Positions 9,345 through 51,409 of a stretch of DNA of 64,000 bases are shown piece after piece. The DNA comes from a virus: IMG/VR virus record IMGVR_UViG_3300042863_001519, positions 30,805 through 94,804 of that record. One strand, written 5' to 3'. Numbering within the stretch: position 1 is the first letter of the stretch; each line of letters starts with the position of its first letter. A program made the translations under genes and the position numbers. The notes below the pieces were generated by a model that worked only from the letters and a program-made list of their open reading frames with translations, had not been told where the DNA came from and searched no databases.

Positions 9345-11420
9345 TTAAAACAAACTTATCTGACCACTTTCTTTCTCTTTTCTATCACGTTGATATATAG
9401 GAGAAATCTTGTCAATTATCTTATTGGTTGCACGTATGTAATACGTATAATCAATACCGTAGTCGTCCCAGTTTTCAGCACTAAAAGGTTTGTTGTACAG
9501 TACCTGGAGCTCACTATCTGATTCACAATTGCTCTTCTCTGGACCTGTTTTATCACTGTTTGGGTTCTTCATCTTATACAACTTCTCACCAATACCTTTT
9601 GAGCAGTAATAACGTACTAGCTTGTTGAGATCAGTTACTGTACCAGTTTTTCTATCAACACTTCGATAGAAGTAATCCCTTGATGCTTTCTTGGCAATAC
9701 AGAAATCGAAGATGTTTCTATGACTTATCACAGTATCTTCAACCGGAATACCCTGAGTAAAGTACTTCTCTAATGCTATAGGAACAATACATTTACTCTT
9801 GTTCTTGTGCAACTCATAACTTGTAAGGAAATCACCTTTCTTTTTTACTCTTTTGTCAAGAGGTTTGTCAATAACTATTGCTTTAAACTCACCATCTTTA
9901 AATACCCAGTCAGCTTTCTTTACTGCCAGATAATCATTAACGGATGTTTGTACAAACAATTCGTACTCTACATACTCCAAGTTACCAAGAATGTCATTAC
10001 CAACTTCTTCTTCCCATGTTTTACATGCATCATAATACTTCTGTACATAATCTTGATGAATCAGTACAGTAATACCATCGGTATTCATACTAGTTATCTT
10101 GAGTGTTGGTATTTGTAGCAGATCCTCAGCTAACATAAATAGATCAACTTGACCACCAATAGTTACTTGCATACTTGCAAATGGGTCATATTGCCAATCA
10201 AACCTATCACCAAGTCGGCCAAAATTCCCATTCATTACTAATTTATAACATTCTTGGAAATTATCATACTTCTTATCACCGGTTTCCTTATACAACTTTT
10301 TAGCCTCTAGTCTCTTTGGAATGTTTATCACATATGCTTCATTCCACTTTGGTCCAAGGTGTGCAGGATAAATGTTTCTTTTACGTATGTTGTTAGGATA
10401 CTGTGAGCCTACGTCAGCATCAATTAGTAGATAACCTTTAGGTATATCAATAATTCTAGGGTTATCTGCAGAGTGTACACCACCCTTTGCAAACATTATT
10501 GTAATGTCAGTAAGAATAAATGGGAACTCCTGTTTTTCATTGAGATTAACCTTTGTCTTACCCAAGTTTGTAAAAAAGTTATTAAACTCAGCTGTATCAA
10601 AATGAGTGTAGTCAGGAAAGCAATCCTTAAATCGGAAACCTGTTTTAGTTTTCCTCTCTTTTACTTTACTATACAACTGAGCTTCATTGATCTTTGCCAG
10701 ATCCATGTACACTTTCTTGTTTAGCTCGGCACCGATCTTAACATCATTCCAGTTAATTGCAAGAGATGGAAACTTATACTCCTCAATAAGATCAAGTCGT
10801 AACTGTACTTTGTTCTTCCCTGCATAATCAGGATGATTAGTATTACCTACTGCAATGTTGTAGAGATTTGCTGTAGCAGCTACATCGTTCCAACAATACT
10901 CAATAACTTCATCAATCTCTTCAGAAGTTAACTCTTCTTTACGAAAGTCAATAGGCAATTCTTCGATGTTACCATCTAAAGAAAACTCTCCAGCCCACTT
11001 CAAAGAACATCTCTTGGCATCATTGTTGTAGTGAAACAACAGAAACAGATCAATCTGTTTGAAGTCAAGATAATGTTCTTTGTAGTGAGGTTGTAATTCG
11101 TAGTTCCTATCATCAATCGTCTTTTGTGCAAACTCAAATATAGCTCTGATGATACGTTCAACCGGCCAGTGTATCCACAATGAACAGTTATCTACTATAA
11201 ACTGAAGTACTTGGGTATCAAAGTAAACTCCATTAAAAGTACAAAATCCCCATCTGTTATACTCAATTAAATGTTTTACAAGAGCATCTAATTGATTTTT
11301 CCTAGATGAAATTTCATACTGAAATCTTTCATTAGTTTTTATATCAAGACCGCAAAACAAAAACATTGAGTAATAGGTTTCAATATCTATCACTTCTATT
11401 TTTAAATCTTCACTTTTCAT
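9345..11420 (-). CDS. polB: family B DNA polymerase
   Basis: ExoI DIETY, ExoII FNGVYFD, ExoIII YCWNDV; polymerase motifs DVGSQYP, KLVMNGNFG, NTDG. Confidence 0.93.
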   Translation of the reverse strand: MKSEDLKIEVIDIETYYSMFLFCGLDIKTNERFQYEISSRKNQLDALVKHLIEYNRWGFCTFNGVYFDTQVLQFIVDNCSLWIHWPVERIIRAIFEFAQKTIDDRNYELQPHYKEHYLDFKQIDLFLLFHYNNDAKRCSLKWAGEFSLDGNIEELPIDFRKEELTSEEIDEVIEYCWNDVAATANLYNIAVGNTNHPDYAGKNKVQLRLDLIEEYKFPSLAINWNDVKIGAELNKKVYMDLAKINEAQLYSKVKERKTKTGFRFKDCFPDYTHFDTAEFNNFFTNLGKTKVNLNEKQEFPFILTDITIMFAKGGVHSADNPRIIDIPKGYLLIDADVGSQYPNNIRKRNIYPAHLGPKWNEAYVINIPKRLEAKKLYKETGDKKYDNFQECYKLVMNGNFGRLGDRFDWQYDPFASMQVTIGGQVDLFMLAEDLLQIPTLKITSMNTDGITVLIHQDYVQKYYDACKTWEEEVGNDILGNLEYVEYELFVQTSVNDYLAVKKADWVFKDGEFKAIVIDKPLDKRVKKKGDFLTSYELHKNKSKCIVPIALEKYFTQGIPVEDTVISHRNIFDFCIAKKASRDYFYRSVDRKTGTVTDLNKLVRYYCSKGIGEKLYKMKNPNSDKTGPEKSNCESDSELQVLYNKPFSAENWDDYGIDYTYYIRATNKIIDKISPIYQRDRKEKESGQISLF

Positions 11421-12192
11421 TCTTTTTGGTTTTTATTCTATTATTTACAATAGGGTATCTATCATACATCAAAAGAAATTCCTTAATTTTTCTACAATTT
11501 GCTGCATATATTCTTACAGTAGATGTTGCACAGTTTAAATAATTTGCACATTTTTCATCATTATTAAAAGTTTCAACAACTGTGTAATCTAAATTACAAA
11601 GCAATAGTGTTCTTCTATTTTTAAAAGTTTTTCCTTTTGTTTTGCTAATTCTTTTTTCTATAGAAGATTTACTTTTTTTCTTACCTTTCCAATAATCACT
11701 TATTTTCTTTTTATGATCAATTGTTAAAAGTTTTCCTGTATTTGCTGCAATAATTGCGGATAAAGTATTAGGGTGCTGAGGTCTTCCTTTCATTTGTTTT
11801 GATTTTTTTGCCTTAAAATCATCACTATGTCGAAAACCTGCATTTGTGCCGGCTATTTGAACAATATTGTACTTTAATTCTATTGGATATTTATCTAAAT
11901 AAAATTGTTCACGAGAGAGTATAAATTTTATCATTTCTTGCTTTGAAACAAACTGACTTTTATCATACTGTTCAATAATCTCAAAATAAAAATTATCTGC
12001 ACCATACTTGTTATAAGCATTTTGCATCTTTTTACAACCGTGTACATTTTTATTTAGTTCTTTTAAATGTAGATGATACCTGTTACTAAAACTACAAAAA
12101 GAACTGCCTATATAAACTTTGTTTGAAATAGGAGTATATATTTGATATACTCCTATTTTTATACCTTCTCCTCTTATTAGTAATGATTTCAT
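11410..12192 (-). CDS. GIY-YIG homing endonuclease with NUMOD3-type repeats (probable start 12192)
   Basis: GVYQI...VYIGSS, Arg and Glu of the nuclease core, HSDDFKAKKS and HKKKIS repeats; TATTTTTG 4 nt before the ATG. Confidence 0.9.
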   Translation of the reverse strand: MKSLLIRGEGIKIGVYQIYTPISNKVYIGSSFCSFSNRYHLHLKELNKNVHGCKKMQNAYNKYGADNFYFEIIEQYDKSQFVSKQEMIKFILSREQFYLDKYPIELKYNIVQIAGTNAGFRHSDDFKAKKSKQMKGRPQHPNTLSAIIAANTGKLLTIDHKKKISDYWKGKKKSKSSIEKRISKTKGKTFKNRRTLLLCNLDYTVVETFNNDEKCANYLNCATSTVRIYAANCRKIKEFLLMYDRYPIVNNRIKTKKNEK

Positions 12193-12222
12193 TTTACAAA
12201 AATAGTAAAATTTTATCAAAGT

Positions 12223-12270
12223 TTACGACTTTAAAAATAAAATCTCTAATCTGAGTTCTTCTGTCTTCAT
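12223..12270 (-). pseudogene. stranded copy of the polB N-terminus (MKTEELRLEILFLKS*)
   Basis: First 10 aa match polB MKSEDLKIEV; ATG overlaps the upstream gene's TGA. Confidence 0.75.
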
Positions 12271-12461
12271 TTTACTTCTTCCTTTTGTTTTTTGCTGATT
12301 ATTACAGTATCTACCAATGCTTTGTCAAAGATTTGTATTTTGTCATAAAAGTGATTCTCTACATCACCTTTGAAAAGTTCCTGTAGCATCATCTTCTCCA
12401 AATCATTCTCTGGGGTAAGTGCTAGTTCTATCTTACCATTGATAGCAAAGTTACATTTCAT
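12267..12461 (-). CDS. hypothetical protein
   Basis: 64-aa ORF with ATGA couplings. Confidence 0.7.
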   Translation of the reverse strand: MKCNFAINGKIELALTPENDLEKMMLQELFKGDVENHFYDKIQIFDKALVDTVIISKKQKEEVK

Positions 12462-12766
12462 GCTTTTTTATTTAAGATACTATCAATGAGGTTATGTGAG
12501 TGAATGGCTATGGTGCCATAGTTGTAACCTACGGTTGCTCTTGGGTTTCTTACTTTCTTTCTAAGCTGCTCCCTTGCTTCTATCACAGCACTCTGCAGTT
12601 CTTGCTTCCTACGTTCAGATGCTTGCCACTTCTGCTCTCTTGTGGCACGTACATAAGTACGGCTTATAAACTCCTTAGAAGGGGCTGGTTTTGGCTCAGG
12701 GCAATATGCTGTTCCCATAATAGCTGATCCTGCAAATAAGAGGATACGTTTCGTGTTATTTTGCAT
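12458..12766 (-). CDS. hypothetical protein
   Basis: 102-aa ORF. Confidence 0.6.
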   Translation of the reverse strand: MQNNTKRILLFAGSAIMGTAYCPEPKPAPSKEFISRTYVRATREQKWQASERRKQELQSAVIEAREQLRKKVRNPRATVGYNYGTIAIHSHNLIDSILNKKA

Positions 12767-12793
12767 GTTATTGGTTTTTGATTGTGAAAAATG

Positions 12794-13339
12794 TTATAAT
12801 CCTTTTTTAATCTTCTCTATACAACCAGCATAACCAGCAAGGTCAACTAGAGAGTCTTGTTTCTCACAGTTGTCTTTATTGGCTCTACAGATCTTCAACC
12901 AGGCCATCATCAAACCTACTTGCTCAGGGGTAATAGTTGCTTTTGTAATTACTTCCCATCCTTTAGCAATATCTTTGAAGTTGTCAGATGTCTTACCATA
13001 GTCTTTTTCTCGGTCTCCGTATATAAGACCTTTAGCTGTATCTAGAATAGTATGACCAGGTGCTGATTGAATGTCGGGTTGTTGCTCGGTATGGTTTTGT
13101 GTAGGCTTACTCTCCAAACTTGCAATGAAATCGGAGTAGGTAATTTCGGGTAGTTTAGCATTGTCGTTGTAATTGTAATATATCCCTTCATGGCTAGATG
13201 GGTCTATTCTAAAAAATAGAAATTCATCATCAAAATGTATTGCAGATTTCAACCCATACCCCCTTGCCAATTCCGCTAAGTGGTTCAATTCTTGCTCCGT
13301 TGCGAACTTAATCGCTTTGCCTTCAAATGGGTTTGTCAT
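12794..13339 (-). CDS. DUF6378-like domain fused to an N-terminal domain shared with 26305..26748
   Basis: GDREKDYG...NF..IA..W...VGLMMAWLKICR...DSLVDLAGYA. Confidence 0.75.
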   Translation of the reverse strand: MTNPFEGKAIKFATEQELNHLAELARGYGLKSAIHFDDEFLFFRIDPSSHEGIYYNYNDNAKLPEITYSDFIASLESKPTQNHTEQQPDIQSAPGHTILDTAKGLIYGDREKDYGKTSDNFKDIAKGWEVITKATITPEQVGLMMAWLKICRANKDNCEKQDSLVDLAGYAGCIEKIKKGL

Positions 13340-13353
13340 GTGTTATGTTGTTT

Positions 13354-13737
13354 TTAGTTTTTACAATATTTGTTAATAAGAATTTCTTTGTACTCTTTCC
13401 CTTCTTTTGTTAAACCGTTTTCATCCCAGTAATCAGGTAGGTCATGAAAAGATTGAAGATGTTGCCATACATTTATGGCTATATTACTATATTCTTCTTT
13501 CATCTCTTTAAAAACATCTTCTTCCTCTATTTCTATATTATTTTTATGAAGACCAACTACACCACAATCATAATTTTGCTTAGGGTCTAGCATACATCTT
13601 CCAACAGCACACATATTACCTGTTTCCTTATTATAGTACTCACAAAGACCAGTTTTATTAACAGCTCTTCTCTCAGGATTATTCTCATAGTATTCAATAG
13701 TCTCTAGTACTAGTTCTTTTACAGTTTTCTTTTTCAT
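13354..13737 (-). CDS. hypothetical phage protein
   Basis: CEY...MCAVGRCM...LQSFHD pattern. Confidence 0.7.
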   Translation of the reverse strand: MKKKTVKELVLETIEYYENNPERRAVNKTGLCEYYNKETGNMCAVGRCMLDPKQNYDCGVVGLHKNNIEIEEEDVFKEMKEEYSNIAINVWQHLQSFHDLPDYWDENGLTKEGKEYKEILINKYCKN

Positions 13738-13738
13738 G

Positions 13739-14191
13739 TTATTTTGTTGCTTTTACGGCTAATCCAGCCTCGATTAAAGATGGTATGTGTAGGTAGCCAC
13801 AATCGTAATGCTTTGAGCGTAGGAAGTCGATAATTTGACACCAAGACAATGCAGAAACATTAGTTTGCCTGTTGATGTAAATAGTTACCAGTTCCCTACC
13901 AGCAATAATAATAGATTCTATTGCTTGATACCTACATTGAGCAATCTTCGCCACCTCAATCGCATCATCATCCGTTATCTCGGATAGTGGGGTTAGGATT
14001 GGTTTAATCTCTCCGTAAAATGCAAAGTTTTGTATGGGGCTTTTGACTACATTATTATTCATGTATTCGTACCAAACCCTTGTTTTATTAATAGAATTAA
14101 CATTGCCAATTCTATTTTGTCTAGTGTCCTTTACCTCGCAGCCCATATAAGCCGCAAACATTCCCATTAAAAATTCGTTCGTGTATTCCAT
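13739..14191 (-). CDS. hypothetical phage protein
   Basis: KPILTPLSEIT...LIEAGLA pattern common in Bacteroidota phage genes. Confidence 0.7.
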   Translation of the reverse strand: MEYTNEFLMGMFAAYMGCEVKDTRQNRIGNVNSINKTRVWYEYMNNNVVKSPIQNFAFYGEIKPILTPLSEITDDDAIEVAKIAQCRYQAIESIIIAGRELVTIYINRQTNVSALSWCQIIDFLRSKHYDCGYLHIPSLIEAGLAVKATK

Positions 14192-14199
14192 GTTATTTT

Positions 14200-14520
14200 A
14201 TTGATGTTACTTTGGTAGGTGAAGATGTGTTTTTGGTAAGATACTGCAACTACTTTACTCACATTGCTCTACCAAAGCTTTTACTGAGAAGTAAGTAACA
14301 GATATTCCTCCCCTATAGTCCCCTCCAATTAAGGAAAAAGCTAAAGTAAGGGCTTTGAGTCAGCTCTGTTCCAGAAACGTGGACTATTTTAAATGAGAAA
14401 ACCCTCATCTGATGAGGACCGGCAAAGGTATCAGAGAGGGTATTCAGAGGAACCAGTCCTCATCATTTTTATCTTAAAGTATGTATTATCCTATTGAAGA
14501 TTTTGCCGGTCCTCTATAGT
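14200..14520 (-). ncRNA. candidate structured RNA or long regulatory leader
   Basis: Non-coding, GC-richer, several competing inverted repeats, directly downstream of TATATTTG (14525..14532). Confidence 0.45.
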
Positions 14521-14524
14521 ATTG

Positions 14525-14556
14525 CAAATATACTACACCCTTTTTCAAATTTCCAA
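14525..14556 (-). promoter_or_regulatory. Bacteroidota sigma70-type promoter
   Basis: -7 TATATTTG with TTG 21 nt upstream. Confidence 0.65.
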
Positions 14557-14571
14557 TAGTTTCTCAGATAT

Positions 14572-15381
14572 TTATTTTCCTACTATCTGCATCAACTGAG
14601 GTGTGCCGAAGTAGAGTGGTTGACGAGTCTTTTCCCATGCCCGGATGAACTCAAGCTGCAGGATCTCTTTGGTAATACCTTTGCTACGGATAAGCATCTG
14701 CTCCGTTTTCAAGGCCTCCAGTTCGTTCAGCTTACGTTGCTCAATGATCTGCTGATCCAGTACAGATACGTTGGTATTTACCTCATTACGGCTATCTATC
14801 TTGGCTTTTACCTTATCACTAAAGTCAAGCTGGCAAGAGAATGTAATAAGCTCCAGACCCTTTGCTTCGAATGCATCTGTAACCTTCTTCTGAACATCCT
14901 GCTCAAAACGTAATGAACCACCGTTTGCCATCAGTGTATCAGTAAGATACTTCCGGCTCTCTTCCTTCATGATATCATAGATCTTAGTCTCCAGGATATT
15001 ATCTTCCAAAGCTTTCATAAAGTCATCACCGGCATCCAGATGTTTGTTCTCAAATACTACATCGACTGCACGTTTCTCCATTATCTTGAAAGAGTAGATA
15101 GGTTTTGAGGTAAACTCAGTGTTATCTGCTGCCTTAAGATGAAGAGTCTTATGTGTCTCATCATTGTCATCAAACGATGCACGTTGCTCCCACAGTGGTA
15201 CCTGGAACAGCTCTGTACCGGCACTCATTGTCCACACACGACCTTTCTGCAGACTGAAATCTGCTTTGCCGGCCTTACCGTAATTTTCCATAAGCACACC
15301 GATATAGTTAGGTGCTACACGATCACAAGATGTCATTGTTCCGATCATTGCTACAAGCAGGAAATACATTACTTTTTTCAT
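14572..15381 (-). CDS. SPFH/band-7 domain lipoprotein
   Basis: Lipobox MTSC, RVAPNYIGV start of the SPFH domain, C-terminal coiled coil and IRAW motif. Confidence 0.85.
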   Translation of the reverse strand: MKKVMYFLLVAMIGTMTSCDRVAPNYIGVLMENYGKAGKADFSLQKGRVWTMSAGTELFQVPLWEQRASFDDNDETHKTLHLKAADNTEFTSKPIYSFKIMEKRAVDVVFENKHLDAGDDFMKALEDNILETKIYDIMKEESRKYLTDTLMANGGSLRFEQDVQKKVTDAFEAKGLELITFSCQLDFSDKVKAKIDSRNEVNTNVSVLDQQIIEQRKLNELEALKTEQMLIRSKGITKEILQLEFIRAWEKTRQPLYFGTPQLMQIVGK

Positions 15382-15382
15382 A

Positions 15383-15559
15383 CTACTTCTGGTTTTTGTT
15401 TTTGTTTACGTAATTAATAATAGAATGGATAATCACTACTACTGCAGAAAAACCTGCAATAATCAGAACATAGGGATGTATGTGATTAAATACAATCCCC
15501 GGCACTATACACATAGAGAGTATAGTAAACAACGCAAGGTAAAGTTTGAACTGTTTCAT
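15383..15559 (-). CDS. small two-TM membrane protein (not in ORF track)
   Basis: MKQFKLYLALFTILSMCIVPGIVFNHIHPYVLIIAGFSAVVVIIHSIINYVNKNKNQK; ends 1 nt before the SPFH ATG. Confidence 0.65.
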   Translation of the reverse strand: MKQFKLYLALFTILSMCIVPGIVFNHIHPYVLIIAGFSAVVVIIHSIINYVNKNKNQK

Positions 15560-15568
15560 TTGTTTGTT

Positions 15569-16623: not shown

Positions 16624-18769
16624 GAGAAGCTAACCATTTGTTAAACAGATGGTCTTGAAATGCTCTTGAGCAATCTTCATGTTTTGTAAGCAGGTGCTCA
16701 TTTTCTTCTATCAAAGTAACAGCAATCTCTCTAATACCTTTTTCAAACTGCTTTGAGGAGATATAGATAGTATTGTTTTTTGCAAGACCTAGTACAGATA
16801 CCTGGCTGAATGTTACTACTTCGATAGGATAACTTATCTCATACTTCATATCAGTGAGTGCTTCAACAGCTTTCTTCAGTTGATAATCCATTTTTGGAGT
16901 AGTCTTTACAGGAATGGTAAAAATATCATTATCTTTATCAACACCACATACTTCCACTTCTGGGAAATCTTCTTTGATCTTTCTTGCCAATGATTTTGAA
17001 ACAATCAGATGCGGTTCTGTTAACCTGTCTACATAAAAACCACTAAGATCCTGATTGATAACTATCCTGTTACCAATTGCATCTCTCCATGCAGAGTTCA
17101 ATTTACGATATGAATCATGAAACTCAAGAGTTGTCTCGATAAACATTGCATCTTTAAAGGCACACTGCATAATAGTTGATGCAACATCTTTAGTTGCATG
17201 TTCCATCAGAAAGTCTCTAATTATTCTTCTTGCACCATACATATTATCTATTACTCTACTCTCGTTAATAGTAAAGTCAGGAAGATCGTAATGATACAAT
17301 GCTTCGCCTGCATCATAACATCTGATACCTCTACGATACAATATTCTCTGGTGCTTCTTACAGATATTCGGAAATACTTTCCCTACAGGTAGATCAATTA
17401 TTGCATCTGTTCTATCAAATGAGAAGTAGGTATCCCAGTTGTTGATTACTTCTTTTATCTGAGCTACATGCTCGATATAGAAACGTGTGTAACCTTCTTT
17501 ACCGGTTACTATTTCTGTACTGGGTATTACGTTATTCTCACCCTCGTCAATAGCATTAGATACAAACTCACGCACTGCCATCCAAGTATCCCACTGTGGT
17601 CCCATATCAGTAGTAAGAGATGTTTCCCTACCATCTATCAATATCTTCTCAAAGCTCTTATCTCTAAAAGCTACAGGTTCTGTTGATAGTACTAACTCCT
17701 TCTCACCAGAGAAGATACGTAATCCTATCTTAGCTTTGAGTAAAAGAGCTATTGCATACTTGTTACCTGAGCCATCAGGTATGTTAACTTATAGTTTCCT
17801 ATAAGATCGGACTATATCATCACCCTTCTCATTAAGAGTTAGGGGCCGGGCACTTATACTGGTAATTAAGAACACTATAGTTCTCCAGTAGTCTCTGAAC
17901 CTTTATAGAGTGTACTCTATACTTGGATGCTGATTGGCATATCATTTCTGACTTAGCTTTCCAGCAGTTCACCTCGGTTTTTATTTTCATCCATCTCTGG
18001 AAGGGGTTTCATGGCTCTTTTGTAATTTCTAAGTTCTAAAATAGACATAGGTTTGAGATACTCTTTTTCAAAGTTGCAACTAGCAAAATCTTTAAAATAA
18101 TATCTGTTTGCAGAATCATAAAATATAGCAGCATAAAAAGAATCTTTAAATCTTCCAATTTTTGTTGGACCAGCTCCTTTTTTTATAGTAATTGAAGAGG
18201 AATAATAATGATAAATTTTTCTACCGTTATTATCAGATGTAAGTTGTACACCTCTATATCCGGTTTTATTATCTACCCTTAATAACTTCTTTTTACTATT
18301 GTTTTCATTAGTACATACTCTAAGATTAACAATTCTATTGTCATCTTTTATGTTGTTAATATGATCAATTTGCATATTATCAGGAATTAATGTACCTGTA
18401 TGCAAAAACCAACATAATCTGTGGTATGTGCTTCTATATTCTATATTATCTACTGTAATGTAGATACATTCTCTATAACCTTTTATTGTCTTTCTTGTGT
18501 AAAGTCTATTTTTACGAATGTTGTTTATCTCACCAGTATTGAGATCATAACTAAACATACGCTTGAACACATCTTTTACTCTTTCAGAACTTGCTTCATT
18601 AAATGTTTTTCGGACTCTTTTCATGAAGCAAATATACAAAATTTTATTCTTAAAACCCAATCATTGTAGTACTATCTCTCTTGGTAGAACCACCCATCAG
18701 TGTGAGTGCATTTACATCAATTTGTCCTTTGTTCTCGATAAGGAGAAACTGCTTGTTTGTGTTTTCCAT
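16595..18769 (-). CDS. GHKL/HATPase-fold protein, 432 aa after splicing (exon 1 18769..18652, exon 2 17775..16595)
   Basis: Spliced junction restores MGGSTKRDSTTMIGF-Y-GSGNKYAIALLL; also REFVSNAIDE; C-terminal EENEH. Confidence 0.85.
17776..18651 (-). mobile_element. group I self-splicing intron with endonuclease in loop L1
   Basis: P AACUGCUGGAAA, Q AAUCAGCAUC, R UUCAGAGACUA, S GAUAUAGUCC; IGS 18004..18017 pairs with both exons; terminal G at 17776. Confidence 0.93.
17953..18624 (-). CDS. HNH-AP2 homing endonuclease (intron encoded)
   Basis: HRLCW...IDHINNIKDDNRIVNLR (HNH); NKTGYRGV...IGRF...AA..YD (AP2); TATATTTG 4 nt before ATG 18624. Confidence 0.9.
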   Translation of the reverse strand: MKRVRKTFNEASSERVKDVFKRMFSYDLNTGEINNIRKNRLYTRKTIKGYRECIYITVDNIEYRSTYHRLCWFLHTGTLIPDNMQIDHINNIKDDNRIVNLRVCTNENNSKKKLLRVDNKTGYRGVQLTSDNNGRKIYHYYSSSITIKKGAGPTKIGRFKDSFYAAIFYDSANRYYFKDFASCNFEKEYLKPMSILELRNYKRAMKPLPEMDENKNRGELLES

Positions 18770-18904
18770 TTTTTTTGTGTGTTTAAAAGTTAAAAATGAT
18801 TAATTTACCCAACTCCATGTTGGTACATCCATTTGAATTGCAAGTAACTCTACGTATTCTTTCATGTTTTTGTATTTACCTGTTAAAAAATTAATTATTT
18901 GTGC

Positions 18905-19225
18905 TTATTTAGCACATTTTTCAAAGTGGAAAATTACCTCATTACTTACATCTGCTACCATACCGTAATCCTTACATAAACTGTATTTACTGTTAAGATA
19001 TTGTAGCTGTTTATGTACCACTGCTATGTGTAGCCTAAACTGCTCAATACTCTTACTCCCCTTACGCCTCTTACACCTCATGCAGCTAGGGTATAACTGG
19101 TTATTAGTGCTGTCTAGTTTTAATGTGCTAATGGTTAACGCATTACCGCAGTACGCACATTTACAGCCATACTTATTTAGCACTTGTAGCCGTTCCGATT
19201 GTGGTATTCTGATTTGTGTTGTCAT
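18905..19225 (-). CDS. degenerate HNH-like Zn-finger protein
   Basis: KYGCKCAYCG...PSCMRC; catalytic DH and N absent. Confidence 0.65.
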   Translation of the reverse strand: MTTQIRIPQSERLQVLNKYGCKCAYCGNALTISTLKLDSTNNQLYPSCMRCKRRKGSKSIEQFRLHIAVVHKQLQYLNSKYSLCKDYGMVADVSNEVIFHFEKCAK

Positions 19226-22076: not shown

Positions 22077-22087
22077 GTTTATTGTTT

Positions 22088-22471
22088 TTATATAAGTGTT
22101 ATTGCTTTTTCAATTACTGCTTGTCTTGCTTCATGATAAGATTCTGCCGCACCTCCAACATTTATGTAACAATCAACAAAATACCAACGATATAATAACA
22201 TAGTTGTAACACCCCTGCTAGTAGCAAAATCAACTAAATCTTTATCGTTCCTAGCTATGACAATGTGAATATTACGTTTCTCTCTAAACCAATCAATGAC
22301 TTGTTGCCAGAGTGGAGCTGCAATACATTCGCCTATACTCCTGAAGTTTTTAAAATCTGTATCGATTGGTTGTATTTCTTTTTCCCCGTCAAAATAAGCA
22401 AAACACTGTTTATCGAATCCTTTTTCCCTTAAATTAAGTGCTATCTCGTATGGTACAAATTCTTCTTCCAT
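22088..22471 (-). CDS. hypothetical phage protein
   Basis: FVPYEIALNLREKGFD...APLWQQVIDWFREK pattern. Confidence 0.75.
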   Translation of the reverse strand: MEEEFVPYEIALNLREKGFDKQCFAYFDGEKEIQPIDTDFKNFRSIGECIAAPLWQQVIDWFREKRNIHIVIARNDKDLVDFATSRGVTTMLLYRWYFVDCYINVGGAAESYHEARQAVIEKAITLI

Positions 22472-22512
22472 GTTTGTATGTGTTTTTAAAAAGTTTCAGA
22501 AATAATAAAAAT

Positions 22513-22549: not shown

Positions 22550-22616
22550 AGTTTGTTGGCATACGTTTGTCTGGTGACAACACTCATGTATACCTGTATA
22601 GCCATGGCAGCTATTG

Positions 22617-22637
22617 TGGACCTGCTCGGAGTCGAAC
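22617..22637 (-). pseudogene. stranded tmRNA-like 3' end (T-loop, T-stem 3' strand, acceptor strand)
   Basis: GTTCGACTCCGAGCAGGTCCA directly after the HNH stop codon. Confidence 0.75.
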
Positions 22638-23177
22638 TTACACTGATTGATATGTTCTACCAGCACTAATATCCCTTATTACAGTCTCTTTTATTTTAAA
22701 CTGTATAGCGATGTCTTTTACTTTCTTTTCTTTAGTTGCTAATAGTCTTTTTATTTCTATAGCATTTTCTCTAGACAGCTTTCTATTGCATATAGATTGA
22801 AACTCTATTACTTTAGGCACATGATCAAACTTAGAGTAATGACCATGTACATATCTGCCATTTTGTTTTCCTTTAGCTTGTCTGAACTTGTTTACTTTAT
22901 CTTGACAGTTGTCATTGTGTGTACCTACAGACAGATGAAAAGGATTTACACATGCTGGTACATCACAAGAATGCATGATTACTTTTCCTTCTGGTATAGT
23001 TCTGTTATAGTAATACATATAAGCAACCCTATGTGCTCTATGATGTAGTTTACATCCATCTACAACTTCTTGAATAATACCATAGCCATCTCTACCTAGT
23101 CTTTTGTATAGTATACATTCGTTCTTATCTATATTCTGCAGATAAGGCTTTATTCTATTCATTACGCTTGTTGTCAT
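22638..23177 (-). CDS. HNH homing endonuclease
   Basis: DGYG...AHRVAY...MHSCDVPACVNPFHL..GT..DN..D; own TATCTTTG promoter at 23194..23201. Confidence 0.88.
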   Translation of the reverse strand: MTTSVMNRIKPYLQNIDKNECILYKRLGRDGYGIIQEVVDGCKLHHRAHRVAYMYYYNRTIPEGKVIMHSCDVPACVNPFHLSVGTHNDNCQDKVNKFRQAKGKQNGRYVHGHYSKFDHVPKVIEFQSICNRKLSRENAIEIKRLLATKEKKVKDIAIQFKIKETVIRDISAGRTYQSV

Positions 23178-23204
23178 ATCTCTATATTTTCAACAAAGAT
23201 AATA

Positions 23205-23245
23205 AAAAAGTGGAACTAATCTACATTAATAGTTCCACTTTTTTT
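23205..23245 (-). terminator. tmRNA terminator
   Basis: AAAAAAGTGGAACTA/TAGTTCCACTTTTTT inverted repeat. Confidence 0.75.
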
Positions 23246-23249
23246 GTAG

Positions 23250-23616
23250 TGGACCCGGAGGCATCCGAGAGCCTCGTCCAAACAGTGTTCCTCTCAAAAA
23301 AGTTACGACTATGACTTGTTTTTACTCTGCTGTCTTCAGAGATGCTTGAAAGTTCTGCATAATCTACATCTACTTACAACGTCAATAGTTTTTATTTTAA
23401 ACAGTCAGATTTCTCTTCTTATCTGTGGTGAATTAGGCTGCTTCTGCTACTAGAGCATTTGCAAAGCACATATTAATAATACGTGCACCTTCTTCCTGAC
23501 GAGCAACTTTTTCGTTGTTTGCATCTATTGTTTGAATCTATTTATTTAAAGGACTACATCCTTGTCCTTAGTCGCCTTTTCTACTATACTAGCTGCTGTC
23601 AAAACCAATCGGGCCC
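23250..23616 (-). ncRNA. ssrA: tmRNA; tag (A)ANNEKVARQEEGARIINMCFANALVAEAA* at 23522..23433
   Basis: 5' GGGCCCGATTGGTTTTGACAG; acceptor GGGCCCG/CGGGTCC with G3:U70 and discriminator A; resume context AATAGAT-GCA; tag ends in AA. Confidence 0.92.
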
Positions 23617-37903: not shown

Positions 37904-37905
37904 TT

Positions 37906-39170: not shown

Positions 39171-39240
39171 AAAAACTATAAAAAGAGAAAATTCAGTTAG
39201 GTAATCTTATTAATAAATGTAAACAAGAACTAAGTAAAAT

Positions 39241-42910: not shown

Positions 42911-42927
42911 GATAAAGATATTATTAT

Positions 42928-45672: not shown

Positions 45673-45756
45673 CTAAGAGTGCCTTTTTCTAAACATAGAA
45701 TGTTTTTTCTTTGCCTTAATGGTGTATATTAATAATGAACCAACAAACAAATATAA

Positions 45757-47019
45757 ATGCAAACAGTAGTAACTAATGAGACTGTAGATCTCGATAAGTT
45801 GTTTCCGGGTATAGATACATCAGATGTACTTACATCCAAAGTGCCAAATATCCTGAGTAATGATACTGACATGTCATTTTTAGATAAACCAGCTTTAACA
45901 AAAGAAAATGAATCTAATACAGATTCAAATTCTGAAAATGAAACTGCTAAAGTAAAACCAATTGTCAATGAAACAGAAGCTAACAAGATTCTGGATTTGA
46001 TAGGCAAAGAAGATGATGAAGATGAGGATGGTCAGGGTTATACAAATGCAGGTACAGGAAGACCAAAATCAGATAAGAATGCTTTGGCAGGATATCTGAA
46101 ACAAAAAATAGAGGCAGGTGATTTTTCTGCTTTTGAAGATTGGGATGAAAAGAAACAAACTCTTGATGAGTATCTTTCAAAACAACCTGAGAAAGTATTA
46201 CATCAAATGCTTGATGCAAACTGGGAGTCTAAGGAGAGAGATCTTCTTGAGCGTACTCCAAAAGAGTTCTTTGAAGCGTTACCTGAAGAGTTGCAATATG
46301 CTGCAAGGTATGCAATGGAAGGTGGACAGGATATGAAAAGTCTGTTTGCTGCACTTGCCCGGGTTGAACAGGTAAGAGAGTTAGATCCTGAAGATGAAGA
46401 TGGTCAAGTTATTATAGCCAGAAATTATCTACAGGCAACAAACTTTGGTACATCTGATGAGATTGAGGATGAAATATCTAACTGGAAAGAAAACAATCGT
46501 CTTGAGAAAAAAGCTAAAGACTTTAAACCAAAGTTAGATCTAATGCAGAAACAGCAGGTTGAATATCAACTTGCACAACAAGCAGAGTTTAACAATCAAC
46601 AAAGACAAGCTGCTCAGACGTATGTAGCAAATGTTGGACAAGCTCTTCAAAAAGGTGACTTAAATGGTTTGAAGCTTGATAGAAAAACACAAGCTATGTT
46701 GTATGAAGGTTTAACCAATGTTGCCTACCCAAGTGCATCGGGCAAAGCAACAAACCTTTTGGGACATATGTTAGACCGTATCCAGTATGTTGAACCAAAC
46801 TTTGAATTACTTGCAGAAGTAACTTATATGCTAAGTGATCCGGAAGGATATAGAAACAGTATAAGACAACAAGGTAAAAATGTTGCAGTGAATGAAACAG
46901 TAAAAAAGTTAAAAACAGAACAGTTACAAAACAATGGTACTTATAGTGTTGATGATGTTGAGGAAAATAAATCAACTAAGAAAAAACTCTTTAAGCCAAA
47001 AAACATGTTTGAGAAGTAA
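45757..47019 (+). CDS. acidic capsid-assembly/scaffold-like protein
   Basis: Acidic helical protein between portal and capsid genes. Confidence 0.6.
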   Translation: MQTVVTNETVDLDKLFPGIDTSDVLTSKVPNILSNDTDMSFLDKPALTKENESNTDSNSENETAKVKPIVNETEANKILDLIGKEDDEDEDGQGYTNAGTGRPKSDKNALAGYLKQKIEAGDFSAFEDWDEKKQTLDEYLSKQPEKVLHQMLDANWESKERDLLERTPKEFFEALPEELQYAARYAMEGGQDMKSLFAALARVEQVRELDPEDEDGQVIIARNYLQATNFGTSDEIEDEISNWKENNRLEKKAKDFKPKLDLMQKQQVEYQLAQQAEFNNQQRQAAQTYVANVGQALQKGDLNGLKLDRKTQAMLYEGLTNVAYPSASGKATNLLGHMLDRIQYVEPNFELLAEVTYMLSDPEGYRNSIRQQGKNVAVNETVKKLKTEQLQNNGTYSVDDVEENKSTKKKLFKPKNMFEK

Positions 47020-47056
47020 ACAATTTTCGTAAACAATAAACAATAAATAAACAGCA

Positions 47057-48679
47057 ATGGCTACTCCAGTTTTAAACAATGGTATCGCACTTCGTGATAA
47101 CGTGTATGAGATAGGTTCAAATTATGATTCCTATCACCTGTACAATATGATGAAGGATGCGAAACCTACCGATCTAGGTCCCATCGAATTTTGGGCAAAC
47201 ACACAGGTTGCACAGATGCCCCTGTACGCATTCTCTAATTTTGGTAAAGGTAATACCATTGATGTAGATGATCCTCGTGGTCGTTATACATGGCAGACAC
47301 CAGTTGCCAATGACCTTCCTCAGATCACTCGTGATATTGATCCTTCTGATGGCAAGAAAGGTATTGCAGAGAAATCATTCCGTATTGTATTAAACCGTAG
47401 GGAATATGGTCATACTGCAGTTCTGACTTTTGATAAATACCGTGGTTTGGAGTTTCGTGTAACGGAAGACCCAATCATCTCTATGGGTAACAACGAGTTT
47501 GTTTACACATGTAAACTGATTAACAACAACACTGCTGCTTACCTTGATAACAAATACCTTGTTCCTGGTACCAAAGTATTCCGTGTAACTTCAGGTCGTG
47601 GTGAATATGGTGAGCGTTGGGATGACGTTGTTTCTCGTGCTGGCTACAGGGAGTTTTATAACATCCTTGGTAATGCAGAAGCGAATGCTTCTTACCACAT
47701 TACTCAGAGAGCTGATGCTATGATGAGAAATGGTCAGAACACAGGTGGTATTCCTGTAACTGAGATATGGAAAGTTAACGATCCATCTCTTCGTGCTGAT
47801 CCATCACTTCGTACTTTGGAAGACATCTCAACACGTCTGGGCCAAGTAGGTATGTTGAAAGCAATGAAAGAAGGTCAGATTAGCAAAGCGTTTATCACTG
47901 AGATAGAGCGTCAAGCAATCAAAAAAGTAACAACAGACCTTGAGACTTACTTGATGTGGGGTAAAGGTGGTCGTGTTCAGCAGGATGGTCCAGATGATCT
48001 GAGATTCTCTACAGGTCTGTGGATACAGTCTGACAACGGTTACAAGAAAGTGTACAACATTGGTACTTTCAGTACTGACATGTTCAACTCTGAAATTTAC
48101 AACTACTACATTGGTAAAGTAAACTTTGAGGGTCCTGATCCTAAGCGTAAGCTGATAGTTCAGACTGGTCTTGCAGGTATGCAGCAGATGAACAAAGCTA
48201 TTCAGCAGTTTGCTATCAACTCTGGTCTGGTACAGAATGCACACGAACTTGGTGCTATCAAAGGTGAAGCTCTTGACCTTGATTTTGGTTATGCGTTCAC
48301 TTCATACACTATACCATTCTTAGCAAACCTGAAGTTTGTTATTAACCCTGCGTTTGATAATGTAGAAGCTAACGAGATTGAGAATCCAATCATCAATGGT
48401 TTCCGTCTGTCTTCATACTCTTACATCATCTTTGACGTAACAGATCGTGGTACAGATAACATCAAAATGCTTCGTGACAAACATGACCACGAGTTCCATT
48501 GGATGTATCAAAATGGTACAGCGGATTACATGGGCCGTACAAAAGGCTTCCAGTCTTCAAGTGACTTCAATGGTTACAAAGTGAAGATGTTCCAAAAGCA
48601 AGGTGCTTTGGTTGTAATGGATCCTACAAGGTTGCTGAAGATAGTTGCCAAGAATCCTATAACAGGGTATTCACTTTAA
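47057..48679 (+). CDS. major capsid protein
   Basis: 540 aa, MATPVLNNG start, LMWGKGG...GLW.Q, strong codon bias, followed by a terminator. Confidence 0.88.
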   Translation: MATPVLNNGIALRDNVYEIGSNYDSYHLYNMMKDAKPTDLGPIEFWANTQVAQMPLYAFSNFGKGNTIDVDDPRGRYTWQTPVANDLPQITRDIDPSDGKKGIAEKSFRIVLNRREYGHTAVLTFDKYRGLEFRVTEDPIISMGNNEFVYTCKLINNNTAAYLDNKYLVPGTKVFRVTSGRGEYGERWDDVVSRAGYREFYNILGNAEANASYHITQRADAMMRNGQNTGGIPVTEIWKVNDPSLRADPSLRTLEDISTRLGQVGMLKAMKEGQISKAFITEIERQAIKKVTTDLETYLMWGKGGRVQQDGPDDLRFSTGLWIQSDNGYKKVYNIGTFSTDMFNSEIYNYYIGKVNFEGPDPKRKLIVQTGLAGMQQMNKAIQQFAINSGLVQNAHELGAIKGEALDLDFGYAFTSYTIPFLANLKFVINPAFDNVEANEIENPIINGFRLSSYSYIIFDVTDRGTDNIKMLRDKHDHEFHWMYQNGTADYMGRTKGFQSSSDFNGYKVKMFQKQGALVVMDPTRLLKIVAKNPITGYSL

Positions 48680-48705
48680 TGCAACCAGTTACAGAATATA
48701 TACAA

Positions 48706-48736
48706 GATGGTGTGGTTTTCGAATCACACCATTTTT
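48706..48736 (+). terminator. intrinsic terminator after the capsid gene
   Basis: GATGGTGTGGTT-TTCG-AATCACACCATT then T-tract. Confidence 0.8.
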
Positions 48737-48803
48737 GTTTTATAATATTTTGAAAAGTCGTACATTTGTCGTACATTTAAAATGAACCAACAAAAAAAGC
48801 AAA

Positions 48804-49871
48804 ATGAATATTAAAGTAGGAAGCAGGGTTAGTATTAAACCTTACATTAGTGGATTACCAAATGCAGGGCTTGAAAAGTATGATATGGTTGTAGCAGACG
48901 GTGCACAACATAAGGAACTTTTAGGTCTTGTAGAACGTAATGGTATTAAGTGTTATTTGACTGGTCTTAATGAACTGGCACCTGAAGTACAGAACATTAG
49001 AGATGTAGAAAAGAAAGAAGCAACTATCAGAGACATTAGAAAAACTGTGGTGTTTCTTGAAAACTCATTAGCAGGTAACTTTAGCCTTACTGAAAAAGAT
49101 ATTGATGAGTATGATGAGAAAGGAAAACCTACTGGTAAACTTTCCCCTATATTCTGGAGTAAGGTAACAATGTTTATCTCTCAGACTCCTGATAAGTTTG
49201 ATGACAAAAAGAATCGTATTCCTACCTATTGGGATGGAGTTGAAATTAAGTGTTCAAACAGTACAACATACCTTGACCCAAAGAATGCACATGACCTTAT
49301 ATTGATACATGCTATCCAAGCCGGTGGATTTCTTTGTGTTGCACCATCTATGGAAGCAGCACGAAATGCAGTAGAACCACCAAAGTGGTACTTGGATAAA
49401 GAAGAGGAGACAGCAGGTATCAAAACTGAAGTTAAGAAACTTCGTAACCAAGCTGGTGCAGAACTGCAAAAACTTTATGACAAAGATCAAACTAAGATGT
49501 TCTATGTTACTAAACTTTGTGCAGTAAACTCTTTGAGTTACAGAAAGTCTACTCCAAATGACATTATGTATGATGATTGTGATAAATACATTAATGGTGA
49601 AACAGTAGACAAGAATAAAAAACTTACTGCTGAAAAGTTTATTGAATATTGCAAACAACCATTGGCACAGTTACGTGTTCAGGCAATTGTCAAAGATTCT
49701 ACTGAAATGCAACTGTTGACTTACAAAACAGACGGTCAGCTGTATTATAATGCTACTGGTACACCAATGGGAAAGAGTGTTAATGATGTAGTGAAGTTTT
49801 TGGAAAATCCTCTAAACAATGATGTTCTTAGTAGTATTACAGATACTGTTGAAGAGGAATGGGTAAAGTAA
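48804..49871 (+). CDS. conserved crAss-like structural-module protein
   Basis: YLTGLNELAPEV, LDP.N.HDLI, FLENPLN; position after the capsid gene. Confidence 0.65.
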   Translation: MNIKVGSRVSIKPYISGLPNAGLEKYDMVVADGAQHKELLGLVERNGIKCYLTGLNELAPEVQNIRDVEKKEATIRDIRKTVVFLENSLAGNFSLTEKDIDEYDEKGKPTGKLSPIFWSKVTMFISQTPDKFDDKKNRIPTYWDGVEIKCSNSTTYLDPKNAHDLILIHAIQAGGFLCVAPSMEAARNAVEPPKWYLDKEEETAGIKTEVKKLRNQAGAELQKLYDKDQTKMFYVTKLCAVNSLSYRKSTPNDIMYDDCDKYINGETVDKNKKLTAEKFIEYCKQPLAQLRVQAIVKDSTEMQLLTYKTDGQLYYNATGTPMGKSVNDVVKFLENPLNNDVLSSITDTVEEEWVK

Positions 49872-49890
49872 TCTCTAAAATCAACATAAA

Positions 49891-49956
49891 ATGGCAAAAG
49901 GAAAAAAGCCAGCACCAATGCCGGCACCGAAACCAAAAAAAGGAAAAATGTGTTAA
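49891..49956 (+). CDS. 21-aa basic peptide MAKGKKPAPMPAPKPKKGKMC (not in ORF track)
   Basis: A-rich leader; fills the intergenic gap and stops 3 nt before the next ATG. Confidence 0.5.
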   Translation: MAKGKKPAPMPAPKPKKGKMC

Positions 49957-49959
49957 CCG

Positions 49960-50667
49960 ATGACCAACGAGTTATTACAGGTAAAATTTCAACAGCGGCT
50001 TAATAAACTATCATCTAGCGATTATGGGAACATAGAATGCTGGATGATAGCTGAAGCCTTTAACAAAGGCATGGATGCTTGGGTATCCAGGCAGTTGCAA
50101 GGTATTAATCAAACCAAGAGTACTGCAGAAGGATCTATTAGGAGTATAGACAAGCTCCAAGTAATTTTGAAACAATCTCCTCTTGCAATGGTTGATCAGG
50201 GTATTTATTGGGATGTAGATCTTCCAACTGATTATCTTGAATGGTCAAGGATAAGTGCAGATGCTCAAGCAGGAGATTGTTGTCCTCCAAGAAGACTCAA
50301 GATATTTCTTGGTGAAGAGGCCGATATGGACATGGTACTCTTAGATAAAAACAGACAACCTTCTTATGACTGGGGAGAGACAGTTGCCACAGTAATGGGT
50401 AAGAAGTTTAAAATCTATACAAACAAGTGTTTTGATATTGTCAATTCTACCATTACCTATTACAGAAAATCAATTCACATAAAGATAGAAGGATGTACTG
50501 ATCCTGATACAGGATTGATTGTACCTCCCGGAGATGGGATAGAATGTGAATTTCCAGATAACATAATAGAGATTCTTATTGATGAAGGTGCAGCAATTCT
50601 CGCAGATGATATGGACAACTATACAAAACAACAAAACTTAAATATGAATGCCGAACGCAATAACTAA
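49960..50667 (+). CDS. virion neck/ring (head-tail) protein candidate
   Basis: RLNKLSS.D, LP.DYL, PS.DW.ET, TYYR, CEF...EILIDE; crAss-like gene order. Confidence 0.6.
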   Translation: MTNELLQVKFQQRLNKLSSSDYGNIECWMIAEAFNKGMDAWVSRQLQGINQTKSTAEGSIRSIDKLQVILKQSPLAMVDQGIYWDVDLPTDYLEWSRISADAQAGDCCPPRRLKIFLGEEADMDMVLLDKNRQPSYDWGETVATVMGKKFKIYTNKCFDIVNSTITYYRKSIHIKIEGCTDPDTGLIVPPGDGIECEFPDNIIEILIDEGAAILADDMDNYTKQQNLNMNAERNN

Positions 50668-51409
50668 CATAGCAGGTATTTATAAAATTACAAATCTTGT
50701 AAATGGTAAGTTTTATATTGGTAGTACGTGTAATTTAAAAAGACGTAAGGGGAATCATTTTGCAGAACTGAATAGAAATAAACACTGTAATATTAAGTTG
50801 CAGAATGCATGGAATAAATACGGAGAAAAGGCATTTTACTTTGAAATTATATCTACCTGTCCGAAGGAATATCTTTTAAAATTAGAGTATTGGTTCATAA
50901 AAACATTATCTCCTTTTTATAATATTATTCAAGTACAGGAAGATTACAAAATAAAGATTAAATCTTTACATAAAAATAAGTTTAGAGAGTCTGTAAATCC
51001 AAGGGGATCAATACCCATATCTGTTTTTGATATAAACAATAATTTAATTGCTAATTTTGTATGTCTTTTAAGATGTGCAGAGTTTTTAAATACTCCAGTT
51101 TCGGGTATAAGTAAATGTCTTAAAAAAGGAAGACCTTTAAACAATAAATATATTTTTAAATATACCAAGAAAGATAATATTGAATATATAGATAATCGAT
51201 TAACAAGAGCAAAACTCTTTACAAAAGAAGGTCAGTTCTTAGGATTATTTGATACTTATGAACAGTTAGCAAAACATTTAAGTGTAAGTAAGGATACAGT
51301 TTATAGAACTATTAATAAAAAGACTACATTTTTATCGGCCAAATATCTTATATTTAAAGAGAAAGATAAAATGCAAGTACTGAATCAAAGTGCAGAACGT
51401 AACAATTAA
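50648..51409 (+). CDS. GIY-YIG homing endonuclease with NUMOD1-type HTH repeats
   Basis: AGIYKITNLVNGKFYIGS...R...H...LQNAWNKYG; AT-rich. Confidence 0.92.
   Translation: MPNAITNIAGIYKITNLVNGKFYIGSTCNLKRRKGNHFAELNRNKHCNIKLQNAWNKYGEKAFYFEIISTCPKEYLLKLEYWFIKTLSPFYNIIQVQEDYKIKIKSLHKNKFRESVNPRGSIPISVFDINNNLIANFVCLLRCAEFLNTPVSGISKCLKKGRPLNNKYIFKYTKKDNIEYIDNRLTRAKLFTKEGQFLGLFDTYEQLAKHLSVSKDTVYRTINKKTTFLSAKYLIFKEKDKMQVLNQSAERNN

Follow-up and report, generated by a model that had tools for sequence, protein, structure and literature searches.

Three loci in the genome of an uncultured lake-water phage carry a free-standing homing endonuclease gene that is situated between the working end of a neighbouring gene and a short, diverged duplicate of that same end, referred to below as the stranded end. 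The DNA concerned, the window hereafter, is a stretch of 64,000 nucleotides (nt) that corresponds to bases 30805-94804 of a 94.8-kb virus record in IMG/VR (IMGVR_UViG_3300042863_001519). Unless a relative is named, all positions are positions within the window. The affected genes encode a family B DNA polymerase (polB; locus 1, minus strand), the transfer-messenger RNA (tmRNA; locus 2, minus strand) and a virion structural protein (locus 3, plus strand). An earlier note on this DNA had claimed three such loci, two with a GIY-YIG and one with an HNH endonuclease, and one of them at an RNA gene. All three were found where the note had placed them, and the nature of the enzymes and of the RNA gene was confirmed by comparison with Pfam/PHROG and with Rfam (RF00023), respectively.

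Near-identical DNA is present in many lake-water metagenomes. The nearest named relatives of the polymerase are crAss-like gut phages and the Maribacter phage Panino (27-32% identity), and the GenBank phage collection yielded polB relatives of at most 32% identity; a relative was found there neither for the polB region, as DNA, nor for the virion gene, as protein. The comparisons were made with 12 polB relatives in IMG/VR, of which L001 and L007 served as the endonuclease-free reference, with 147 virion gene homologues of about equal length, the closest allele being P0005 from a 40-kb contig of a public run, and with the intact, endonuclease-free tmRNAs in the genomes of two relatives (L036 and L037). 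According to Pfam the phage genome contains six homing-type endonuclease genes (two GIY-YIG and four HNH), three of which are studied here. A DNA-level repeat search around each locus returned only short AT-rich chance pairs; the pairs of termini were not found, because the copies are too diverged for a plain repeat search.

The DNA polymerase locus

The polB gene (9345..11420, minus strand) encodes a complete and uninterrupted protein of 691 amino acids (aa) that starts with MKSEDLKIEV (phrog_1252 DNA polymerase, E 3.5e-108) and aligns over its full length (1-691) with the polymerase of L001 at 95% aa identity. Directly upstream lies GIY1 (11410..12192, minus strand), a free-standing GIY-YIG endonuclease gene of 260 aa that matches the PHROG homing endonuclease families (best E 7e-18). 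Its last codons, including the stop, overlap the present polB start by 11 nt, and the polB ATG lies within them. Further upstream a mini open reading frame (ORF) of 15 codons (12223..12270, minus strand), starting with MKTEELRLEI, is followed by a 64-aa gene (12267..12461, minus strand) that shows 98% aa identity to L001 and L007 and of which the TGA stop overlaps the ATG of the mini-ORF as ATGA. GIY1 is lacking in L001 and L007, where the stop of the 64-aa gene directly overlaps the ATG of polB itself. Moreover, the first 19 nt of the mini-ORF (12270..12252) are identical to the polB start of L001 and L007, with a weaker likeness past these 19 nt to about 12240. On this comparison, the mini-ORF is the start of the original polB gene.

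The boundaries of the exchanged DNA are sharp. Window and L001 are 97-100% identical over some 540 nt of the upstream flank, through base 19 of the stranded start. Then follows a block of 1,011 nt (12251..11241) that has no counterpart in L001 and that consists of a short spacer, GIY1 and polB bases 1-180. The latter bases (11241..11420, minus strand), which represent codons 1-60 and include the DIET exonuclease motif, are identical to L001 at 116 of 180 positions (64%), whereas the next 300 bases are identical at 299. More specifically, 64 mismatches fall in bases 1-180, a single one at base 222, and then none until base 514. The same tract is 59-67% identical at the nt level to every sampled relative; as it is about equidistant from all of them, the first 60 codons of this polB appear to come from an unsampled lineage. 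The cassette as a whole is present in some and absent from other genomes that have a 95% identical polB.

Judged by the alignment with L001, bases 20-180 of the old polB gene (161 nt) have been deleted and 180 foreign nt have come in their place, which is not a simple duplication. The earlier note had spoken of replaced gene ends: exchanged ends were indeed found, but polB also lost the said 161 nt, and at the tmRNA the exchange seems to reach beyond the 3' end (see below). The remnant can, on the same comparison, only be explained by insertion into an allele of the L001 type and not by loss from an allele of the window type, and the tract and GIY1 were probably imported together.

One may propose instead that the gene ends were duplicated locally in tandem and diverged afterwards, the endonuclease genes having landed between the copies later. 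In line with that, the copies have the same orientation and are no more than 0.8-1 kb apart. Nevertheless, the 64 mismatches in the 180 nt of the working polB end stand between flanks of 97-100% identity to L001, and divergence in place cannot give such sharp boundaries. In addition, the polB remnant spans only some 19-30 nt as against 180 foreign nt.

Contigs of run X12 deserve a separate remark. One of them matches 12240-12835 and has 261 further letters beyond 12240 that are absent from the window stretch. The same run shows zero cover over 11308-11908, i.e. in GIY1, and low cover over the HNH gene of locus 2, neither of which was counted as evidence of absence. A 41-nt match of 71% between the start of GIY1 and the start of polB was judged inseparable from chance.

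The polB genes of this phage group carry further irregularities. In the window a second diverged patch (10212..10328, polB bases 1093-1209) is 78% identical to L001 between flanks of 98-100%, and has no adjoining endonuclease gene. It lies some 20 codons downstream of the motif-A site (between DADVG and SQYPN), at which the relatives L009-L012 have an insert of about 900 nt with a GIY-YIG ORF and no Rfam intron. The patch may be the scar of a lost element. A seeming duplication of polB residues 322-343 in L009-L012 turned out to be an alignment overlap. Other relatives are interrupted at residue 530 (about 1.16 kb; L008 4915..6076) and at residue 610 (about 0.2 kb; L006 5824..6047), and neither interruption contained an Rfam intron at gathering score. 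Finally, an insert of 440 nt separates the 64-aa gene from polB in L003 (1040..1482) and L006 (3559..4001), and is missing in L004 and L005. It was considered as an endonuclease gene or a polB remnant and rejected as either. It is a small gene of about 130 aa in which, by eye, a motif like the C-terminal domain of the RNA polymerase alpha subunit can be discerned.

The virion gene locus

The virion structural gene (49960..50667, plus strand) is complete and encodes 235 aa that end in KQQNLNMNAERNN, directly before the stop (phrog_29507 virion structural protein, E 6e-8). Its replacement 3' end (50629..50667, plus strand), encoding QQNLNMNAERNN plus the stop, overlaps the first 20 nt of GIY3 (50648..51409, plus strand), a free-standing GIY-YIG gene of 253 aa with NUMOD1 and helix-turn-helix regions (Pfam GIY-YIG E 3e-9, NUMOD1 E 1e-5). 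GIY3 is read in another frame than the virion gene, starting 20 nt before the stop of the latter, and has no stop of its own: it continues in frame into the virion gene's original, now stranded 3' end (51368..51409, plus strand; KMQVLNQSAERNN plus stop) and ends on that stop. Then come the native spacer of 25 nt and the ATG of the next gene at 51435. The spacer resembles, by eye, that of L014, and the gap between the stop and the next gene in endonuclease-free relatives measures 14 nt in L018 and 27 nt in L014 and L015. GIY3 is not found in L014-L019.

The closest endonuclease-free allele, P0005, is 96% identical to the virion protein of the window, and residues 91-223 are the same in both. 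The 13 C-terminal residues of P0005 equal the stranded copy at all 13 positions (13/13), whereas they agree with the working end at 9/13; the working end differs at residues 224, 226, 229 and 230, and these are the sole differences within the last 145 residues. A comparable picture emerges at the DNA level. No other place in the window matches the gene ends of three out of four endonuclease-free relatives (L014, L016 and L019; 33-34/42 nt) as well as the stranded end does, and the working end is closest to the gene end of the L018 type (34/42 nt). The two ends at this locus have 26/42 nt in common. That the working end fits another natural type of allele is a further point against tandem duplication, which we consider highly improbable on the whole.

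According to these alignments, the insert is a neat cassette of 12 replacement codons and a stop followed by the GIY3 ORF, placed 13 codons before the original stop, and nothing has been deleted. Its left boundary could not be placed by means of a profile, which was too noisy against relatives of 74-82% identity; L018 is the closest relative in the last 60 nt. An identical layout was encountered in an independent IMG/VR contig (L013/L048).

The tmRNA locus

The tmRNA gene (23247..23616, minus strand) was recognized by Rfam (RF00023, positions 1-374; 62.1 bits versus a gathering score of 47) and by Rfam alone: the identification in the earlier note is supported in that way, but ARAGORN does not call the gene. 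Its tag frame ends in ALVAEAA plus stop, and its acceptor stem pairs at 7/7 positions, including G3:U (GGGCCCG with CGGGTCC). The T loop is non-canonical, i.e. not of the usual TTCRANY kind. Between the 3' end and the endonuclease gene lies a GC-poor hairpin with a T run (23204..23246, minus strand) that, as read from the sequence, looks like a terminator and is partly conserved in the relative L042. The free-standing HNH gene itself (22638..23177, minus strand) encodes 179 aa (Pfam HNH_3 E 6e-9; PHROG HNH endonuclease E 4e-21). Directly after its stop codon comes the stranded tmRNA 3' fragment of 24 nt, GTTCGACTCCGAGCAGGTCCACAA (22614..22637, minus strand), composed of a canonical T loop, the 3' strands of the T stem and of the acceptor stem, and finally ACAA.

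When the 3' end of the intact L036 tmRNA was compared with both strands of the window, the stranded fragment was the unique best match (19/24); the next best reached 16/24, and the working tmRNA 3' end remained below that. Rfam in E-value mode gave no partial tmRNA match on the fragment, and the direct comparison with L036 was used instead. The layout recurs in a second phage. L042 contains a homologue of the HNH gene (65% aa identity) in the same arrangement of tmRNA, HNH gene and a stranded 3' fragment after the HNH stop. In its tmRNA (2555..2948) the tag region is near-identical and the T loop is odd in another way, and the stranded fragment of L042 is followed by the hairpin and the tRNA that come after the intact tmRNAs of L036 and L037. 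In a lake variant from run X10 the tmRNA remnant of the window has suffered two 1-nt deletions, which fits dead sequence.

The pairing of the acceptor stem provides information on the extent of the exchange. The resident 5' acceptor strand pairs at 7/7 positions with the upstream, working 3' end in the window and in L042 alike, whereas it pairs with the stranded 3' strand at 6/7 in the window and 5/7 in L042. As the 5' strand fits the new rather than the stranded 3' end, the exchange was not confined to the 3' end: going by the pairing, it covered at least both acceptor strands, and probably the whole tmRNA gene. Exact-pattern scans of IMG/VR for closer tmRNA alleles yielded none beyond L042, and the relatives of the 127-aa gene beside the tmRNA were too distant to help. 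The earlier note had called all of the targets essential, a qualification that is plausible for polB and the virion protein and overstated for a phage tmRNA.

Group I introns can reside in the T loop of tmRNAs. It should therefore be asked whether the three inserts are unrecognised introns or inteins, and the stranded ends exons or exteins that are joined by splicing, the more so as a group I intron and a split intein are present in the same genome (see below). However, no Rfam intron was found at the three loci, even at E values up to 10 around the tmRNA, and the genes are complete without the stranded piece: polB is full-length compared to L001, the virion gene encodes its 235 aa, and the acceptor stem pairs at 7/7. 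Moreover, the stranded acceptor strand does not fully pair with the 5' end of the resident tmRNA, and the polB remnant hits a stop after 15 codons. Splicing is hardly conceivable in this light, and insertion without splicing, as claimed before, agrees with the completeness of each gene.

The 3' ends of tRNA and tmRNA genes are classic integration sites with duplicated ends, and a duplicated tmRNA 3' end is typical of integrative islands. An integrase-type mobile element might thus have made the duplicated ends, and so might a chimeric assembly. Yet no integrase is present, and each insert amounts to one endonuclease gene, in 0.7-1.0 kb. With respect to the assembly, lake metagenome contigs were compared with the window, and among the joints listed the junctions are bridged by contigs of other, independent lake metagenomes, in addition to the independent IMG/VR contig for locus 3 (L013/L048). 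The chance that either an integrase or a chimera is responsible is extremely small.

The tmRNAs of this phage group have long tags. The T loop is non-canonical in both HNH-linked tmRNAs (window and L042), neither of which is called by ARAGORN, and the L042 copy escapes Rfam too; the endonuclease-free tmRNA of L037 also has an odd T loop. The canonical T loop may be the target of the HNH enzyme. The 127-aa gene just downstream of the stranded fragment (22090..22497) is absent from contigs of three lake runs, in which 8 other letters (TAGTGTAA) are found at that position.

Other insertions in the genome

As the earlier note had asserted, intron and split-intein insertions exist in the same genome. 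A split intein divides a DnaB-like helicase (6781..8832, minus strand) within the P-loop, between GETG and SGKS. The intein-N at the end of the N part starts with CFTGE, and the intein-C at the beginning of the C part ends in VHN, followed by S. An out-of-frame HNH gene (7872..8417) is located between the two halves. The helicase of L001 is intact (371 aa), and contigs of run X12 join across approximately 7728-8690. The group I intron locus (17775..18660, minus strand) comprises a match to Rfam (17788..18048; 70.9 bits) and an HNH ORF (17953..18660). All 884 nt of this locus are missing from a contig of run X12, which has 8 other letters instead and thereby represents an intron-free allele. 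Beside it lies a 106-aa ORF (18905..19225, minus strand) of which the match to a PHROG HNH endonuclease family (E 9e-14) is limited to the C-terminal part of that family; the ORF may be a truncated endonuclease gene. Finally, the segment 14569..15567 is a clean presence/absence polymorphism of 999 nt in lake contigs of three runs. It does not concern an endonuclease; the segment holds a gene for a 269-aa protein of PHROG family 200 ('lipoprotein') as well as a 58-aa ORF.

Common anatomy and proposed origin

The three loci share a common order: the native gene body is followed by a foreign end, the endonuclease ORF and a short native end, and the order is mirrored for polB, where the N-terminus is concerned. 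At all three loci (3/3) the insert comprises essentially just one endonuclease gene and the gene end that adjoins it, and each target gene is complete on one side of its endonuclease gene. The points of insertion are inside the genes, namely after approximately base 19-30 of polB, 13 codons before the stop of the virion gene, and in the T arm of the tmRNA. The ORFs are tightly packed: GIY1 and GIY3 overlap the imported ends, the stop of the HNH gene abuts the old T loop, and GIY3 also enters the old end. The expectation in the earlier note that the stranded copies would match uninterrupted alleles was borne out at polB (19/19 nt plus flank), the virion gene (13/13 aa) and the tmRNA (19/24), as was the discordance of the working ends of polB (64% for bases 1-180 against 299/300 for the next 300) and of the virion gene (9/13). 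At the level of sequence these comparisons establish the polarity of the insertions, the foreign origin of the working ends and the native origin of the stranded ends.

We consider it likely that each of the three endonuclease genes entered together with the adjoining end of its neighbour gene from a diverged phage, by double-strand-break repair or gene conversion. In the proposed course of events a broken recipient would have copied a diverged donor to which it was homologous on only one side. One joint would have been formed by homology inside the body of the target gene (at base 180 in the case of polB), and the other without homology, at or near the break and inside the target gene's own end, so that the distal piece of the old end was saved. 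The product would be a native body with a foreign end, i.e. a gene that is whole without splicing, with the short native end stranded beyond the endonuclease gene. Each enzyme would have its cut site in the endonuclease-free allele, within or close to the stranded sequence, and the imported end, diverged as it is (26/42 nt at locus 3, 64% at polB), would escape cutting and render the carrier immune. At a later co-infection, the stranded end and the downstream flank could serve as the second homology arm, and the cassette would then home in the way of an intron-encoded endonuclease, yet without the intron. The finished structure shares homology with naive genomes on either side of its endonuclease gene and could therefore home on.

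The most serious rival is ordinary mosaic recombination. The stranded ends would then be scars of homology-facilitated illegitimate recombination, by which related phages exchanged segments, and the endonuclease genes would be passengers at the boundaries that neither brought the exchange about nor profit from the replaced ends. Phage genomes are mosaic and nuclease genes are known at the boundaries of exchange (PMC10448857), polB bases 1093-1209 have diverged without an adjoining endonuclease gene, and the role assigned to the endonucleases is read from sequence. On the other hand, the insert at all three loci is one endonuclease gene with the gene end next to it and hardly anything more, the endonuclease ORFs lie straight against gene ends, and the layout of HNH gene and tmRNA recurs in L042. 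Moreover, a double-strand break beside the insertion is a textbook trigger of one-sided repair (PMC2988022). We therefore regard ordinary mosaic recombination as unlikely.

A number of points nonetheless weigh against import driven by the endonucleases. The cut sites and the immunity of the resident alleles are predictions from sequence. The Pfam GIY-YIG match of GIY1 is weak (18.8 bits, under the family cut-off), and its activity would accordingly not be assured. A donor of GIY1, GIY3 and the foreign polB tract was not found, so that the case for horizontal import would be carried by the sharp identity boundaries alone: GIY1 and GIY3 had no close homologues in IMG/VR or the JGI metagenomes, a query with polB residues 1-62 by themselves returned nothing, and G001 gave no family-B polymerase match. 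The L042 genome was examined as donor of the polB tract and rejected, its polB being L002-like. At locus 3 the close endonuclease-free relative is known as a protein only (P0005). At the tmRNA, the extent of the replacement is gauged from the pairing of the acceptor stem only, no close endonuclease-free allele having been found, and the window and L042 may descend from a single ancient insertion instead of two separate ones. In addition, a crude comparison of ungapped 12-aa tails with same-locus controls at 39 other, distant phage GIY-YIG loci revealed no enrichment of flanking C-terminal duplicates, so that free-standing endonucleases do not typically show this design.

The best p values in this survey were 0.03-0.04, for L066 and L094. 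In L094 (about 2979..3939) the GIY-YIG ORF and the upstream gene both end in ADREF, and in L066 (about 1749..2750) a peptide like the tail of the upstream gene comes directly after the endonuclease stop; both likenesses are weak.

Implications

To our knowledge, free-standing phage endonucleases have been thought to live between genes, or inside genes only by way of an intron or intein. The loci described here point to another route into phage genes, in which a spare gene end is brought along, and it would apply to an N-terminus, a C-terminus and a structured RNA gene. Gene ends beside endonuclease genes can consequently have another history than the gene body, and short 'orphan' ORFs or tRNA-like fragments in such places may be stranded gene ends. 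The stranded ends also point to the likely recognition sites of three uncharacterised endonucleases. As natural pairs of putatively cleavable and immune alleles exist, there are three enzyme-target pairs that can be tested.

A more far-reaching idea, which we put forward as possible rather than probable, is that these loci are autonomous 'home-and-rescue' cassettes. The mobile unit would be the endonuclease gene plus a recoded end, and the stranded native end would be kept as the second homing arm. With such a unit, intron-less endonucleases would be able to colonise the interior of coding genes in phages, and the T arm of a tmRNA as well. The allele dimorphisms in endonuclease-free relatives, i.e. 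the KQQNLN and KMQVLN gene ends and the odd and canonical tmRNA T loops, would then be immunity scars of earlier invasions. If true, this would be a general and undescribed driver of the diversity of phage gene ends.

Comparison with known systems

Intronless homing in T4-like phages involves the GIY-YIG enzymes SegB, SegF and SegG and the HNH enzyme MobE, with co-conversion of the flanks during break repair, as described in the searched passages of the T4 review by Edgell et al. (2010, PMC2988022), to which the statements on T4-type systems in this and the next paragraph are confined. The endonuclease ORFs in question overlap the upstream gene by 11-24 bp, and SegB acts in a tRNA cluster. Likewise, the genes studied here are free-standing and absent from close relatives (GIY1 from L001 and L007, GIY3 from L014-L019), GIY3 shows an overlap of 20 bp, and a co-conversion tract is seen beside the endonuclease gene, in the form of the 180 nt of polB that end sharply at base 180 and the 12 foreign codons of the virion gene. 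The difference is that the insertion here is inside the neighbour gene and leaves a remnant, and is not a clean intergenic one. The passages searched mention nothing on stranded remnants of neighbour ends or on duplicated termini.

The same passages cite one-sided illegitimate repair in the homing of the T4 td intron, by which the element is gained with homology on one side and the other junction is made at microhomology (Parker, Belisle and Belfort 1999, in PMC2988022). This one-sided route equals the repair proposed here for the first invasion. However, it concerned an engineered laboratory system with an intron, whereas the present cases are natural, intron-free and fixed at three loci. The 'genes in pieces' (Aeh1 nrdA, split by mobE, and gene 43 of phage 25; PMC2988022) also have a free-standing endonuclease gene within the coding region of an important phage gene and no intron or intein. 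There, two polypeptides reassemble, whereas here the gene remains in one piece and the cassette supplies a full replacement end. In 'fractured genes' a free-standing endonuclease gene lies between the halves of a gene with a split intein (Dassa et al. 2009, PMC2677866). The helicase at 6781..8832 is one in the same genome, but such genes need protein trans-splicing, of which there is none at the three loci. Group I introns differ in that no ribozyme core surrounds the three endonuclease ORFs, the sole group I match in the window being at 17788..18048. Full-text literature searches gave no phage description of duplicated or replaced termini beside endonuclease genes, an absence that is no proof.

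The closest parallel comes from fungal mitochondria, where mobile ORFs (mORFs) make 'gene hybrids', e.g. in atp6 of Allomyces macrogynus, in atp6, atp9, cox2 and nad3 of Glomus, in atp9 of Rhizopus and in cox2 of Mortierella (Beaudet et al. 2013, PMC3630166, citing Paquin et al. 1994). A mORF is a free-standing GIY-YIG or LAGLIDADG ORF within the 3' part of a gene, and it carries a foreign C-terminus; the native C-terminus remains downstream and resembles close relatives more than the inserted terminus does. In some cases the endonuclease ORF shares its reading frame with the neighbouring gene piece, or has no stop against it (PMC3630166). Locus 3 matches this design almost point for point, and at all three loci the endonuclease ORF resides in a terminal part of the gene, without intron or intein and with a native terminus beyond it that is closer to relatives. 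In contrast to the fungal cases, GIY3 enters the stranded native end and not the inserted one. The design as such is already known from fungal mitochondria, and what distinguishes the present loci is its occurrence in a phage, its N-terminal case with an upstream endonuclease at polB, its use at an RNA gene, the tmRNA, and its association with an HNH enzyme.

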